From a virus: a stretch of DNA of 21,471 bases. Location of the stretch: UHGV virus genome UHGV-0123286, one strand, 5' to 3'. Each line of letters opens with the position of its first letter. The stretch's first letter is position 1. The position numbers and the translations under genes are program-made. This document shows, one piece after another, positions 8,877 through 12,865 of this stretch. The notes below the pieces were generated by a model. The model saw nothing but the letters and a program-made list of their open reading frames with translations. It had not been told where the DNA came from and did no database searches.

Positions 8877-9593
8877 ATGGAAAATAAAAAATCACTGACG
8901 ACAGAACAGCTCGAAGACGCTAAGCGGCTTAAGGCTTTGTATGAGTCAAAAAAGAAAGAATTGGGAATAACCCAATACTCAATCGCTGATGAACTGGGTA
9001 TCACCCAAGGAGCGGTAGGGCATTATCTTAATGGCAGAAACGCGCTAAACGTTGAGGTTGCATCTGGTTTTGCACGATTGTTGCAAGTCTCAATTGCTGA
9101 TTTTAGCCAGTCAATTGCTGCCAAGGTTGCAGAACAGGCAGAAAGCCTTAAGAGCGATGCCAACGTAAGGTATGCAGGGGAATACAGAGCAGGAAAGAGG
9201 TATCCGGTGTTAAGCAGTATCCAGGCTGGCTCGTGGTGTGAAGCATGCGAACCATACACCATTAAAGACATAGATGTTTGGCTTGAGTCTGACGCGCATA
9301 TTCAAGGTAATGCGTTCTGGCTTAAAGTGGAAGGTGATTCAATGACGGCACCGGTTGGGTTAAGCATTCCAGAGGGAACATTCGTTCTTTTCGATACCGG
9401 AAGGGAGGCGATCAACGGCAGCTTGGTCATAGCAAAACTTTCTGACTCTAACGAAGCAACATTCAAGAAGCTGATAATCGACGGCGGAAATAAATACCTC
9501 AAGGGACTTAACCCTGCATGGCCTCTCGTGCCAATCAATGGAAACTGCAAGATTATAGGCGTTGCAATTGAGACAAAACTAAGGCTGGTTTGA
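8877..9593 (+). CDS. cI: CI repressor (HTH N-domain plus S24 LexA-like autocleavage domain), 238 aa
   Basis: Overall alignment to lambda CI (LTQEQLEDARRLKAIYE.., C-terminal FWLEVEGNSMTAP.., FKKLI motifs) with divergent recognition helix. Confidence 0.9.
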   Translation: MENKKSLTTEQLEDAKRLKALYESKKKELGITQYSIADELGITQGAVGHYLNGRNALNVEVASGFARLLQVSIADFSQSIAAKVAEQAESLKSDANVRYAGEYRAGKRYPVLSSIQAGSWCEACEPYTIKDIDVWLESDAHIQGNAFWLKVEGDSMTAPVGLSIPEGTFVLFDTGREAINGSLVIAKLSDSNEATFKKLIIDGGNKYLKGLNPAWPLVPINGNCKIIGVAIETKLRLV

Positions 9594-9610
9594 TCACGCA
9601 AGGGGCGCTT

Positions 9611-9979
9611 ATGGTTGGAACCGCTATAGCAAGCTTTTTTGGGATGTTGGCAATCTCGACAATTTACGGCTTAGCGCATGCTTTTATTGCGAAATCTCTA
9701 TCAGAAAAAATAAGCCAGGCTTGGGCGCATAGATTGGCTCGTTTCATGGTTCTAGTGATCATAGCAATACAAGGGATATCTGCATTTATCCTCTATGGAT
9801 CAAGCTTATACCTATTGTATCAAGGCGCGACATTTACGCCTTACACCAGTGATTACGGAACTCTATACGATGGTAGTGAAGACATCTCAATGGCTTGGAT
9901 CGTCTTTGGTTTATCTATGGCCGTGTCTGTTGTAGCAGACATCATTAAGGTAATTCTCGTCTTAACCTTCGCTGACTAA
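9611..9979 (+). CDS. Small integral membrane protein (3 predicted TM helices), 122 aa, immediately downstream of cI
   Basis: Three hydrophobic stretches (VGTAIASFFGMLAISTIYGLAHAFI; LARFMVLVIIAIQGISAFILYG; MAWIVFGLSMAVSVVADIIKVILVL); same strand as cI, 17 nt after its stop. Confidence 0.5.
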   Translation: MVGTAIASFFGMLAISTIYGLAHAFIAKSLSEKISQAWAHRLARFMVLVIIAIQGISAFILYGSSLYLLYQGATFTPYTSDYGTLYDGSEDISMAWIVFGLSMAVSVVADIIKVILVLTFAD

Positions 9980-10111
9980 CTCATAATCCCGGCAGCAATA
10001 GCTATCGGGATCCACTTCACATATCCCGCATAAAAAGCACTGAACAAGCAGACACCGAAAAAATAAATATCCTTTGTATTCATTTGCTTATCATTATTTC
10101 ACCAAAAATAA

Positions 10112-10152
10112 ATACCTTGGGTATTTACACAATAAAATACCTACAGTATTCT
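10112..10152 (+). promoter_or_regulatory. OL operators (10112..10124 ATACCTTGGGTAT; 10137..10149 ATACCTACAGTAT) with pL (-35 TTTACA 10124..10129, -10 TATTCT 10147..10152)
   Basis: Same 13-bp palindrome family and 25-bp spacing as OR; hexamers 17 bp apart, oriented toward N. Confidence 0.55.
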
Positions 10153-10198
10153 TTAGCCATCAGCAGGACGCTGGAAGCCAAACGGAACAGATTGGCAG

Positions 10199-10239
10199 GC
10201 TCTTTAACATTGATGGGATTGTCCCGCCGAAATGCGGGA
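10199..10239 (+). promoter_or_regulatory. nutL: boxA GCTCTTTAACA (10199..10209) and boxB hairpin TCCCGCCGAAATGCGGGA (10222..10239)
   Basis: boxA consensus followed 12 nt later by an inverted repeat identical to nutR boxB, between pL and N. Confidence 0.65.
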
Positions 10240-10346
10240 ACCAAAGAGTAGTTGGCTTTGGGGTGACGTGAAGTGCAGCTGCACGACGGCAACCGGAAGA
10301 TAAGCACCCGGCGCGTCACCGCCAAAGTCAATCATCGGAGGTCAAC

Positions 10347-10652
10347 ATGACAGTAGTCATTACATACCTGGCTGACGATAACGCCAGAAACCGCCGCAGA
10401 GCACGCAGACAGGCTCAACGTGAACAGGCAATGCAAGAGCAGCGACTGGCGCGAAAAATTGCGCTAAAGCTCTCTGGTTGCGTCAGAGCAGACAAAGCAG
10501 CATCACTCGGAAGCCTTCGCTGCAAGAAGGTAGAAGAAGTCGAGAGTAAACAGAATCGTATTTACTACCGCAAGCCACGCAGTGAAATGGGTGTGACTTG
10601 TGTTGGTCGCCAGAAAATGAAATTAGGCAGCAAACCACTGTATGAGGGGTGA
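10347..10652 (+). CDS. N: N antiterminator, 101 aa
   Basis: Arginine-rich motif NARNRRRARRQAQ near N-terminus; C-terminus RIYYRKPRSEMGVTCVGRQKMK resembles lambda N C-terminus; GGAGG RBS. Confidence 0.85.
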   Translation: MTVVITYLADDNARNRRRARRQAQREQAMQEQRLARKIALKLSGCVRADKAASLGSLRCKKVEEVESKQNRIYYRKPRSEMGVTCVGRQKMKLGSKPLYEG

Positions 10653-10655
10653 TCT

Positions 10656-10907
10656 ATGGAATTTCATGAAAGTGCGATTTATGATTTTCGCGCTAACGCA
10701 AATTCAGTAAAACCACAGCCAATTGCAGTACTTTTTAAAACAATGGGTGCGTGGGCTGTTTTATGCTTCGCCGCTGATGACACTGACGCAAGAATGGCAA
10801 TAGGCCAAGAGATGGAGATGGACCCGACAAACGATGAATTCATAATTTATGGCGCTCCATCTAATTACTTACTTGATACCTGCAACATTTACAACAAGGC
10901 TGCCTGA
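10656..10907 (+). CDS. Hypothetical protein, 83 aa (position of lambda ral)
   Basis: ORF with GAGGGG RBS directly after N; no family recognised. Confidence 0.45.
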   Translation: MEFHESAIYDFRANANSVKPQPIAVLFKTMGAWAVLCFAADDTDARMAIGQEMEMDPTNDEFIIYGAPSNYLLDTCNIYNKAA

Positions 10908-10934
10908 TGGTGGCCTTTATTTTTAAGGTGCTAT

Positions 10935-11177
10935 ATGAAAATTAAAACCATGGGCGCAAGCCCATTAAGCGGTCGTATTTTTCAAGGAACATTAAACACT
11001 GAAAAAGGAATGTGGGTAGGAAAGAAAGAAGATGTCACCGAACAGGCAGTTAAGGCAGTAGCTGAACACCTGATGATAAAAAACCAGAAATACGCATACG
11101 AAACGAAGGATGGCAAATGGCTGATAATAAGCCATCAAGTGGTTGATAAATTACCAGAAGATTTTATTGCTGATTAA
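10935..11177 (+). CDS. Hypothetical protein, 80 aa
   Basis: ORF with AAGGTG RBS; no family recognised. Confidence 0.45.
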   Translation: MKIKTMGASPLSGRIFQGTLNTEKGMWVGKKEDVTEQAVKAVAEHLMIKNQKYAYETKDGKWLIISHQVVDKLPEDFIAD

Positions 11178-11305
11178 ATTCACTTTGGAACAAACAACAG
11201 AATAAACACTGCACTGTGTATTCATTCCAACGAGTGAATACACGGAGCAATGTCGCTCGTAACTAAACAGGAGCCGACTTGTTCTGATTATTGGAAATCT
11301 TCTTT

Positions 11306-11332
11306 GCCCTCCAGTGTGAGGGCGATTTTTTT
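11306..11332 (+). terminator. Intrinsic terminator inside the pL operon (tL-like)
   Basis: GCCCTC-CAGTGT-GAGGGC hairpin followed by GATTTTTTT. Confidence 0.5.
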
Positions 11333-11343
11333 GACGGAGGAAA

Positions 11344-11656
11344 TATGAAATTACGTGTCTGGCATATCCCGCAAGTACCTATGAAACCGTTCATTGTAGA
11401 AGTGGCAAGTGTTGAAGAGGGTGTTCGCCTGATGGATGCACTGGCTGATTATGACGCCTTTCAGTATGACAACAACATCAAGCCTGACTACTGCAATGCT
11501 AACGGCCTTGAGATGTGGGATGAGAGCCTTACCGATGAAGATTTATCAGAGATGGGGCTTACTGATCGCTGGGTGGATTGGTACAGCGAATGCCAATGTT
11601 ACGACGACCCACGTAAATATCTCGAAAGCCTGAAAGAAGAAACATCAGCCGCCTAA
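11344..11656 (+). CDS. Hypothetical acidic protein, 103 aa (start at internal ATG with GGAGGA RBS)
   Basis: ATG 11344 preceded by GACGGAGGAAAT; translation MKLRVWHIPQVPMKPFIVEV...; no family recognised. Confidence 0.5.
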
Positions 11657-11731
11657 GCGCGGCTTTACCGCATACCAATAACGCTTCACTCGAGGCGTTT
11701 TCGTTATGCAATCAAATATAAGGAGTTACCC

Positions 11732-11866
11732 ATGATGCACTTTCAGCTCGCGGGTAGCGGCGTCATGTCCGCTTTCTACCCGCACGAATCTGAATTATCA
11801 CGCCGAGTTAAACAATTAATCAGAGCAGCAAAGAAACAACTGGAGGCGTTATGCGCAATGAAATAG
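11732..11866 (+). CDS. cIII: CIII-like protein (FtsH inhibitor), 44 aa
   Basis: Manual translation MMHFQLAGSGVMSAFYPHESELSRRVKQLIRAAKKQLEALCAMK; resembles lambda CIII central region; AGGAG RBS; below ORF-track threshold. Confidence 0.55.
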   Translation: MMHFQLAGSGVMSAFYPHESELSRRVKQLIRAAKKQLEALCAMK

Positions 11867-12003
11867 CCATTAATCACCAGATGCTTCGTGCTGCACAAAA
11901 CAAAGCAGTAATAGCCAGATTTATTGGTGATTCCAAAATGTGGCTTGAAGCAAATAAAGCGATGAAATCAGCTATCAACCTTCCGTGGTATCGCAGGAAA
12001 TGA
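11851..12003 (+). CDS. kil: Kil-like protein, 50 aa
   Basis: Manual translation MRNEIAINHQMLRAAQNKAVIARFIGDSKMWLEANKAMK...; IARFIGDSKMW resembles remembered lambda Kil IATFIGDEKMF; GGAGG RBS; overlaps cIII stop. Confidence 0.45.
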   Translation: MRNEIAINHQMLRAAQNKAVIARFIGDSKMWLEANKAMKSAINLPWYRRK

Positions 12004-12170
12004 GTTTTACAGATAACTGGTCAGACGAAGAATTCATTCGTCAGATGAAAGATTTAATCGGTAACGAAGGAGATATTCATGTCACTTGCAACCACAGTGA
12101 AGGAGAGCAAGTTACAGAGACGCATGTACACGCAGCAGGCGTTAATGTATCGCCAGAAGGGAGATCGTGA
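12000..12170 (+). CDS. Small ORF, 56 aa, translationally coupled to kil (ATGA); overlaps an alternative-frame ORF
   Basis: Start overlaps kil stop; no homolog recognised. Confidence 0.3.
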   Translation: MSFTDNWSDEEFIRQMKDLIGNEGDIHVTCNHSEGEQVTETHVHAAGVNVSPEGRS

Positions 12171-12249
12171 AGGTGTTCGCGTATTTTTAAATGCGGCAAA
12201 GACTGAAGTATTAAATCAGCGTTATTTCCTTGGGCCGTGTCCATTCTGA
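12079..12249 (+). CDS. Small ORF, 56 aa, with strong RBS (AAGGAG, 7-nt spacer); overlaps previous ORF in another frame
   Basis: MSLATTVKESKLQRRMYTQQALMYRQKGDREGVRVFLNAAK...; at most one of the two overlapping ORFs is likely real. Confidence 0.3.
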   Translation: MSLATTVKESKLQRRMYTQQALMYRQKGDREGVRVFLNAAKTEVLNQRYFLGPCPF

Positions 12250-12259
12250 GAACAATCAT

Positions 12260-12865
12260 ATGAGCAAAGAATTTTACGCAAGACTGGCAGCTATTCAGGA
12301 GAATCTGAACGCGCCAAAGAATCAGTACAACTCATTCGGCAAATATAAATACAGAAGCTGCGAAGATATTCTTGAAGGCGTTAAGCCGTTACTGAATGGT
12401 CTGTTTTTATCAATCAGCGATGAAGTTGTGTTGATTGGTGATCGGTATTACGTGAAAGCAACGGCAACTATTACCGATGGCGAAAACAGTCATACGGCAA
12501 CCGCACTAGCACGAGAGGAAGAAAGCAAGAAAGGAATGGATTCTGCACAAGTTACGGGAGCTACAAGCTCTTATGCACGCAAGTATTGCCTCAATGGTTT
12601 GTTCGGCATTGATGATGCGAAAGATGCAGATACAGACGAGCATAAACATCAGCAGAACGCAGCAGCAAAGCAATCAAAACCATCACCTACACCTGAACAG
12701 GTTCTAAAAGCATTCACTGACGCAGCATTGCAGAAAAACACCGTGGAAGAGCTTAAACAGGCGTTCGCCAAAGCGTGGAAGATGCTCGAAGGCACACCGG
12801 AGCAGCACAAAGCGCAGGACGTTTACAACATCAGACGAGACGAATTAGAAGGAGCTGCTGCTTAA
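12260..12865 (+). CDS. erf: Erf single-strand annealing recombinase (P22 Erf family), 201 aa
   Basis: From MSKEFYARLAAIQENLNAPKNQYNSFGKYKYRSCEDILEGVKPLL... matches remembered P22 Erf. Confidence 0.85.
   Translation: MSKEFYARLAAIQENLNAPKNQYNSFGKYKYRSCEDILEGVKPLLNGLFLSISDEVVLIGDRYYVKATATITDGENSHTATALAREEESKKGMDSAQVTGATSSYARKYCLNGLFGIDDAKDADTDEHKHQQNAAAKQSKPSPTPEQVLKAFTDAALQKNTVEELKQAFAKAWKMLEGTPEQHKAQDVYNIRRDELEGAAA

Follow-up and report, generated by a model that had tools for sequence, protein, structure and literature searches.

PreS small RNA, a gene 17 homologue and a DUF7446 gene in a probable mosaic accessory block of a lambdoid early-left operon

The DNA analyzed here, called the window, is a stretch of 21,471 nucleotides from the UHGV virus genome UHGV-0123286. 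Its lambdoid immunity and early region contains an early-left operon on the plus strand, in which three small open reading frames occupy the interval between the N antiterminator gene and cIII. The surroundings of this interval are defined by the following features.

8877-9593: LexA-like cI repressor with HTH_3 and Peptidase_S24 domains
10124-10152, plus strand: pL-like sigma-70 promoter between the cI-like repressor and N (TTTACA-17-TATTCT, 9/12 matches)
about 10201-10243, plus strand: nutL-like site read from the sequence, with boxA GCTCTTTAACA followed by a boxB-like hairpin, TCCCGC-cgaaat-GCGGGA
10347-10652, plus strand: N antiterminator, 101 aa (phrog_271, 'anti-termination protein N-like', E = 6e-38)
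11732-11866, plus strand: cIII of the HK022 type (Pfam PF08134, E = 2e-30)

In the case of N, the Pfam N_peptide score lies under the cut-off. Downstream of the three reading frames come cIII, Kil (PF06301), Erf (PF04404) and an SSB-like protein. With its pL-like promoter, nutL-like site and N gene, this is an N-antiterminated early-left operon, and the placement of the three genes in the position of lambda ral and ea10, between N and cIII, as proposed by a first-pass annotation of the window, is confirmed. The reading frames themselves were recovered exactly as they had been delimited there. The same annotation had reported no sieB-like frame on the opposite strand, and this also holds: a SieB-type gene (a minus-strand open reading frame of about 180-190 aa, from N to the ral slot) was not found, the longest minus-strand frame in 10656-11656 being 54 aa. 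In lambda and P22, sieB separates N from ral; here, gene 1 follows N directly. The interval contains, in the order gene 1, gene 2, PreS, 17 and cIII, the following elements.

10656-10907, plus strand: gene 1, an acidic orphan of 83 aa (pI 4.2) that starts 4 nt past the N stop codon (phrog_2471, E = 1e-60)
10896-10925 (stem 10896-10917), plus strand: intrinsic terminator overlapping the gene 1 stop, a 9-bp stem followed by TATTTTT (-13.9 kcal/mol, z = -3.5)
10935-11177, plus strand: gene 2, 80 aa, DUF7446 (Pfam PF24233, E = 1e-28; phrog_1578)
11214-11245, plus strand: HP1, a 14-bp hairpin immediately 5′ of the sRNA, conserved in structure and with its stem sequence swapped among phages
11244-11332, plus strand: homologue of the PreS/LPR1 sRNA, about 88-89 nt, by identity to the lambda ral-ea10 intergenic region
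11260-11290, plus strand: HP2, a stem-loop internal to the sRNA (94% of cells paired; one pair is A-U in the lambda type and G-C in the P22 type)
11304-11332, plus strand: intrinsic terminator equivalent to lambda tL2a, forming the sRNA 3′ end and an Hfq-type module (stem 11304-11325, T7 11326-11332)
11345-11656, plus strand: gene 3, a gene 17 homologue of 103 aa, pI 4.1 (Pfam PF17420 GP17, E = 7e-56)
11680-11705 (stem 11680-11699), plus strand: terminator-like hairpin after gene 17 (-9.9 kcal/mol, z = -3.3)

All three proteins had been described as belonging to no recognizable family, which fails for two of them, as gene 3 is a member of Pfam GP17 and gene 2 a member of Pfam DUF7446. Gene 3 reaches 186.8 bits against PF17420 (cut-off 25) over positions 1-98 of the 98-position profile, matches phrog_1510 (E = 6e-58) and is 88% identical to P22 gp17 over the full length (tblastn). 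The same gene is annotated as gp17 in H-19B, in a record that cites UniProt P14109. Translation starts at an ATG with a GGAGG ribosome-binding site, and the longer reading of 121 aa from a TTG is a mere upstream extension. The GP17 family comprises 246 clusters at 90% identity, some from virulent phages, and the AlphaFold2 model of gene 3 (pLDDT 92.7) suggests a small acidic alpha+beta protein.

Gene 3 resembles P22 gene 17 in its size and in its operon position just upstream of cIII (the P22 order being ral-orf78-orf87-17-c3), and in P22, too, a PreS-like element and a terminator come before the gene. In lambda, the slot after PreS/tL2a is held by ea10, whose product (Pfam DUF2528) belongs to an unrelated family. 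The terminator-like sequence at 11680-11705 that follows gene 17 here is the same as the one that follows ea10 in lambda. According to the P22 RefSeq record NC_002371, gene 17 ‘allows growth on phage Fels2 lysogen’. The sources disagree on the Fels prophage that excludes P22 gene 17 mutants, which is Fels-1 in PMC4837284 and Fels2 in NC_002371. The earlier suggestion of counter-defence genes at this site gains support from this record in the case of gene 3, and falls as far as gene 3 was thought to be an unknown gene, since its family is known. By analogy with P22, for which the gene 17 phenotype is taken from the literature, gp17 would most likely neutralize a prophage-encoded exclusion factor by binding it. 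The host differs, being E. coli here and Salmonella for P22, and the Fels exclusion partner is a Salmonella prophage. A type III toxin-antitoxin system, which has the same layout of RNA, terminator and protein, was considered and rejected: tandem repeats are absent, and gp17, with no PADLOC match, shows no mark of a toxin.

Gene 2 is a full-length member of its family, with 99.4 bits against PF24233 (cut-off 24.1) over profile positions 2-70 of 70, and represents an inserted cassette relative to lambda. Its homologues fall into 61 clusters from Enterobacterales and Aeromonas, all 61 of which carry PF24233, and DUF7446 relatives are located in the early-left operons of Yersinia and Aeromonas prophages. 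A literature search found no mention of DUF7446. Comparison with the PADLOC defence profiles gave no significant match for genes 1-3 and nothing at all for gene 1 or gp17; a hit of gene 2 to DndE (E = 0.005, 15 bits) was taken as chance. That genes 1 and 2 act against restriction or defence would follow from their position only.

The non-coding part of the block corresponds to a recently characterized host-hijacking sRNA. Positions 11209-11331 of the window are identical to lambda (L207:1126-1248(-)) at 123/123 nt, the T run counting seven residues (T7) in the window and six (T6) in lambda. The accessible part of a 2024 preprint (bioRxiv 10.1101/2024.10.31.621285) describes the lambda ral-ea10 region as encoding an Hfq-dependent sRNA, LPR1, renamed PreS, the 3′ end of which is the early-left terminator tL2a; the assignment of the terminator at 11304-11332 to tL2a comes from this source. 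In the same part of the preprint, species of about 88 nt and about 68 nt are reported for the lytic cycle only, PreS being absent in lysogens and appearing with derepression of pL. Lambda PreS is described there as base-pairing with host mRNAs, activating the translation of dnaN and repressing alaS, and deletion of PreS or of its seed as lowering lambda DNA replication and leaving 2- to 4-fold fewer progeny. This account is repeated in a review. Demonstration of PreS function is confined to lambda in E. coli K-12, and in the window the sRNA is known from sequence identity. As in lambda, it lies in the pL operon 3′ of the ral slot and ends in a GC-rich hairpin with a poly-U 3′ end. The locus differs from that of lambda by the presence of gene 17 downstream instead of ea10 and by the DUF7446 gene inserted upstream.

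Counted in lambda from GGAGCAATG through the last residue of the T run, the span is exactly 88 nt long, and because it matches the LPR1 species of about 88 nt, the 5′ end of PreS probably abuts the 3′ foot of HP1, a placement derived from northern-blot sizes. Since PreS would begin at this foot, HP1 would not be part of the mature RNA. The processed form of about 68 nt would begin near 11265. The terminator that had been noted before the third gene is real (-12.9 kcal/mol, z = -4.3) and lies 12 nt before gene 17; across the variants of the element, 6/6 of its stem pairs have changes on both sides. The hairpin and the terminator had been described as mere separators of the small genes, and this description has to be replaced, as the lambda sRNA PreS/LPR1 is bordered by the one and terminated by the other.

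Other assignments of the RNA were considered. Rfam 15 gives no family match at the site in the window, in lambda or in P22. Since the PreS family appears to be absent from that release, this result does not speak against the identity of the sRNA. A weak Rfam match to RyhB (18 bits, E = 3) is just the terminator, and the AgvB, AsxR and Pas sRNAs belong to the late region, close to Q and the lysis genes, and are not detected here by Rfam. A second nut site, suggested by the boxA/boxB-like succession of CGCTCGTAAC and HP2, was also rejected, the sequence being the PreS body and partly paired in HP2.

In most related loci, the 167-bp spacer that precedes gene 17 is conserved at 96-100%. It also exists in the absence of gene 17, as in HK106 and Gally, in which homology extends only to the terminator. 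Among 135 distinct PreS-bearing segments, the upstream slot holds ral in 43 and gene 1 in 7, and both together in none; with about 2 co-occurrences expected by chance in a sample of this size, the separation of ral and gene 1 is not significant. In the downstream slot of the same segments, gp17 is present in 57 and ea10 in 27, never both, the remainder having cIII or other genes. The PreS element is the fixed point of this mosaic, and the mutual exclusion of gp17 and Ea10 behind the sRNA is a hint of analogous roles. Of 5426 complete E. coli genomes, 2285 contain parts of a 1.6-kb query (10300-11900), as do 388 phage records, and at least 80% of the query was covered in only 3 of these genomes, so that the pieces are common and their combination is rare.

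In P22 and many Salmonella-type prophages, gene 17 is directly preceded by a diverged form of the element, which differs in its HP2 loop and terminator stem and has a longer spacer. In the RefSeq record of P22, no feature is annotated at this place. The preprint counted only PreS copies of at least 92% identity (bioRxiv 10.1101/2024.10.31.621285, accessible part), a cut-off below which the diverged P22/Salmonella variant falls, and the part in question makes no mention of it. The variant may have a different set of targets, and its occurrence before P22 gene 17 offers a handle on whether Salmonella phages aim the sRNA at other targets.

The segment is thus very likely a mosaic accessory block in the pL (early-left) operon of a lambda/HK022/P22-type prophage of E. 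coli, with PreS, gp17 and DUF7446 among its parts. The main value of the analysis is corrective, in that apparent unknown genes and RNA punctuation turn out to be a standard lambdoid accessory block. Overall, the biology is known and appears in a rare mosaic combination. What novelty is left is modest and consists of the covarying hairpin, the diverged P22-type sRNA and the orphan gene in the ral slot.

The strong hairpin of the first-pass annotation was found at its place, with a perfect 9-bp core (11216-11224 / 11235-11243) that extends to 14 pairs. Its folding energy is -18.8 kcal/mol (z = -6.3), and 0/200 shuffles fold as well. In a covariance-model alignment of 60 distinct sequences, which is fitted to the structure, both partners are changed in 10/11 pairs, and 95.9% of cells pair. 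The observed values are not attained in any of 500 shuffles, and slid controls pair at 36-44%. A plain MAFFT alignment already gives 8/11 pairs changed on both sides. Only a few discrete variants account for the variation; among them are five or more unrelated stem sequences.

Lambda / E. coli type: 5′ arm GTGTATTCA, 3′ arm TGAATACAC
Locus L057: 5′ arm AATGACCA, 3′ arm TGGTCATT
P22: 5′ arm ATAGCAGA, 3′ arm TCTGCTAT
Locus L068: 5′ arm AATGCGGA, 3′ arm TCCGCATT
Locus L080: 5′ arm ATAGCGCA, 3′ arm TGCGCTAT

Because the stem sequence varies wholesale while pairing is kept, HP1 appears to be selected for its structure. It could act as a processing determinant or as a 3′ protective hairpin for the upstream message. 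HP1 is not mentioned in the accessible part of the PreS preprint (bioRxiv 10.1101/2024.10.31.621285). As PreS-type elements are always accompanied by a covarying 5′ hairpin, the comparison of their variants provides a handle on how the sRNA is made. A broader proposal can be put forward tentatively, in which HP1 would be a structure-selected RNA element, maintained ahead of PreS-type sRNAs throughout lambdoid phages, the P22/Salmonella variant included, and would determine where PreS begins or protect the upstream 3′ end, and in which gene 1 would be an immediate-early counter-defence protein, unrelated to Ral and co-transcribed with N.

Several observations also fit a rather doubtful explanation, according to which HP1 is mainly a linker at the DNA level, a conserved junction where lambdoid cassettes recombine, with no role as RNA. 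Mosaic breakpoints directly precede HP1 and directly follow the terminator, HP1 types reassort with those of the sRNA body, and some Salmonella-type loci have a second HP1 with GAGCAATATCGC about 270 nt upstream, before a protein gene. However, a linker needs a conserved sequence, yet the HP1 stem varies with its pairing maintained, and the conserved flanks GCAC and GAGCAAT could alone serve as the linker.

The second element of the broader proposal concerns gene 1, which has no match in Pfam, NCBIfam, PADLOC or the PDB and is assigned only to PHROG 2471, an annotation without function. Its family consists of 19 clusters, all from Enterobacteriaceae, with 7 representatives among 1.84 billion proteins, and a profile search found only this small family. 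In every case, Citrobacter and Klebsiella prophages included, gene 1 is the first gene after N. The AlphaFold2 model, built from an alignment of 12 sequences, is unreliable (pLDDT 56) and was discarded for fold searches. The terminator overlapping the gene 1 stop aligns with the 3′ end of lambda ral, and the same sequence follows ral in lambda. No terminator is predicted by the scan between pL and 10896, so that gene 1 is expected on the immediate-early transcript together with N. The idea that the small genes are expressed by N-dependent read-through consequently has to be restricted, as gene 1 precedes the first terminator that is predicted. Its immediate-early expression would be prevented by Rho-dependent termination after N, which is possible. 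Being early, acidic and located in the ral slot, gene 1 is the best candidate for a counter-defence protein that has to act at once, and its production together with N makes it a cheap candidate for anti-restriction and anti-defence screens.

A more specific proposal, which is unlikely, makes gene 1 a non-homologous functional analogue of Ral that is produced immediately on infection and alleviates type I restriction. Gene 1 and the ral gene of lambda and P22 share the slot, the last 5 or so codons (NKAA and the stop) and the terminator only; in the prophage of E. coli P393-F10, ral is found in the slot of gene 1 and is followed by the same DUF7446 gene. The 3′ junction and terminator of ral, the acidic character of gene 1, its constant position as first gene after N and the fact that it never occurs with ral in one segment are in line with this proposal. 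At the protein level, the 83 aa of gene 1 contrast with the 64-66 aa of Ral, and the two are without sequence similarity. BLASTP gives no alignment with lambda Ral at E <= 100, nor is there a match to the Ral profile PF11058 (Pfam), which recognizes P22 Ral as positive control with E = 1e-44. Added to the lack of similarity are the lack of a usable structural model and of a family annotation, and unrelated morons commonly share slots.

As for the origin of the sRNA, the 3′ foot of HP1 coincides with the start of the 88-nt species, as would be expected if HP1 carried or overlapped a dedicated promoter and PreS were a primary transcript instead of being processed from the pL transcript. This is very improbable. 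A promoter scan found no sigma-70-like site at or near HP1, the variants do not share the stem sequence that would have to contain the -10 and -35 elements, and lysogens lack PreS, which appears once pL is derepressed (bioRxiv 10.1101/2024.10.31.621285, accessible part). An equally poor account is the original one of three unknown anti-defence genes, with the hairpin and an N-suppressed terminator as punctuation that gives no RNA product. It agrees with the lambda ral/ea10 position, with the real terminator ahead of gene 3 and with the small size and acidity of genes 1 and 3. It conflicts with the Pfam families of genes 2 and 3, with the identity of the hairpin-terminator segment to a lambda locus that experimentally yields PreS, and with the fact that this segment also travels without gene 17 (HK106, Gally, lambda). 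Finally, it is extremely improbable that the 32-codon open reading frame at 11250-11348 encodes a translated leader peptide controlling gene 17: in spite of its GGAG ribosome-binding site, its ATG start and a stop that overlaps the gene 17 ATG as ATGA, this frame across the sRNA was judged non-coding, as the start codon is not conserved (ATG is replaced by ATA in all P22-type copies) and the frame is not kept, one-base length differences at the terminator or T run shifting it in many copies and the lambda frame ending elsewhere.

With PreS regarded as a processing product of the pL transcript, the expression of the block can be outlined as follows. Transcription would begin at pL, and the first transcript would carry N and gene 1 and stop at the terminator overlapping the gene 1 stop. 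Polymerase modified by N at nutL would then pass three intrinsic terminators, reading through gene 2, HP1, PreS with tL2a, gene 17, the third terminator, cIII, kil and the recombination genes. A transcript terminating at tL2a and cleaved immediately 3′ of HP1 would give the Hfq-binding PreS of about 88 nt, to be cut further to about 68 nt. By analogy with lambda, where its function is taken from the literature, PreS would act on host mRNAs through Hfq and raise phage DNA replication and yield.

A terminator scan of 9500-12300 detected 7 terminator-like sites against 2.8 +/- 1.5 in shuffles. Two terminator-like sites on the plus strand are absent from the first-pass annotation, at 10896-10917, with a T run, and at 11680-11699.

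Co-occurrence around PreS, the homologue of the lambda LPR1/PreS sRNA, was counted in 135 PreS-bearing segments from compared phage and prophage loci L001-L207. On the 3′ side, gp17 is present in 57/135 segments and Ea10/DUF2528 in 27/135, while the two are never found together (0/135); on the 5′ side, ral (43/135) and gene 1 (7/135) likewise never co-occur (0/135). Among the 135 PreS-bearing segments, only the window has both gene 1 and gene 2 together with gp17. Gene 2 encodes a DUF7446 protein, and two paralogues of this family lie in a single early-left operon of a Yersinia prophage (L213):

2314-2583 and 4001-4258 of L213: DUF7446 paralogues

HP1, the covarying hairpin directly 5′ of PreS, has counterparts in two other settings:

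2580-2625 of L053, likewise in L103 and L059: second HP1-type hairpin followed by GAGCAATATCGC, ~270 nt 5′ of the main element
2240-2377 of L086 (P22, NC_002371; ~28739-28876 of the record), minus strand: diverged PreS-like element with HP1, GAGCAATATCGCTCGTAAC, HP2 and a terminator

In L053, L103 and L059, the second hairpin precedes a small protein gene, not the sRNA, and looks like a duplicated cassette junction. The P22 element lies between orf87 and gene 17, where the RefSeq record carries no annotation.

When the 89-nt PreS homologue is folded alone, a long 5′ stem (GGAGCAA.GUCG with CGAC.UUGUUCU; window 11244-11290, plus strand) is favoured over HP2, the stem-loop inside PreS. The A-U to G-C change from the lambda type to the P22 type supports HP2 and disrupts this alternative stem. 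It is possible that the PreS homologue folds differently before and after processing.

Three further features lie upstream in the window:

10201-10243, plus strand: nutL-like site, with boxA GCTCTTTAACA and, 14 nt on, a 6-bp hairpin with loop CGAAAT
9976-10083, minus strand: hydrophobic ORF of 35 codons, MNTKDIYFFGVCLFSAFYAGYVKWIPIAIAAGIMS, between the membrane-protein gene and pL
9590/9611-9979, plus strand: gene for a strongly hydrophobic protein of 122-129 aa (GRAVY 1.0)

The nutL-like site is located 3′ of the pL-like promoter and 5′ of N. The 35-codon ORF, which has no PHROG match, may have arisen by chance or may encode a small membrane peptide. The 122-129 aa protein has no match in Pfam, NCBIfam or PADLOC and matches PHROG 6534, a family of unknown function. 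Its gene is co-oriented with the cI-like repressor gene, overlaps it at the repressor stop codon and holds the slot occupied in lambda by rexAB; it is a candidate exclusion or defence gene expressed from the prophage.
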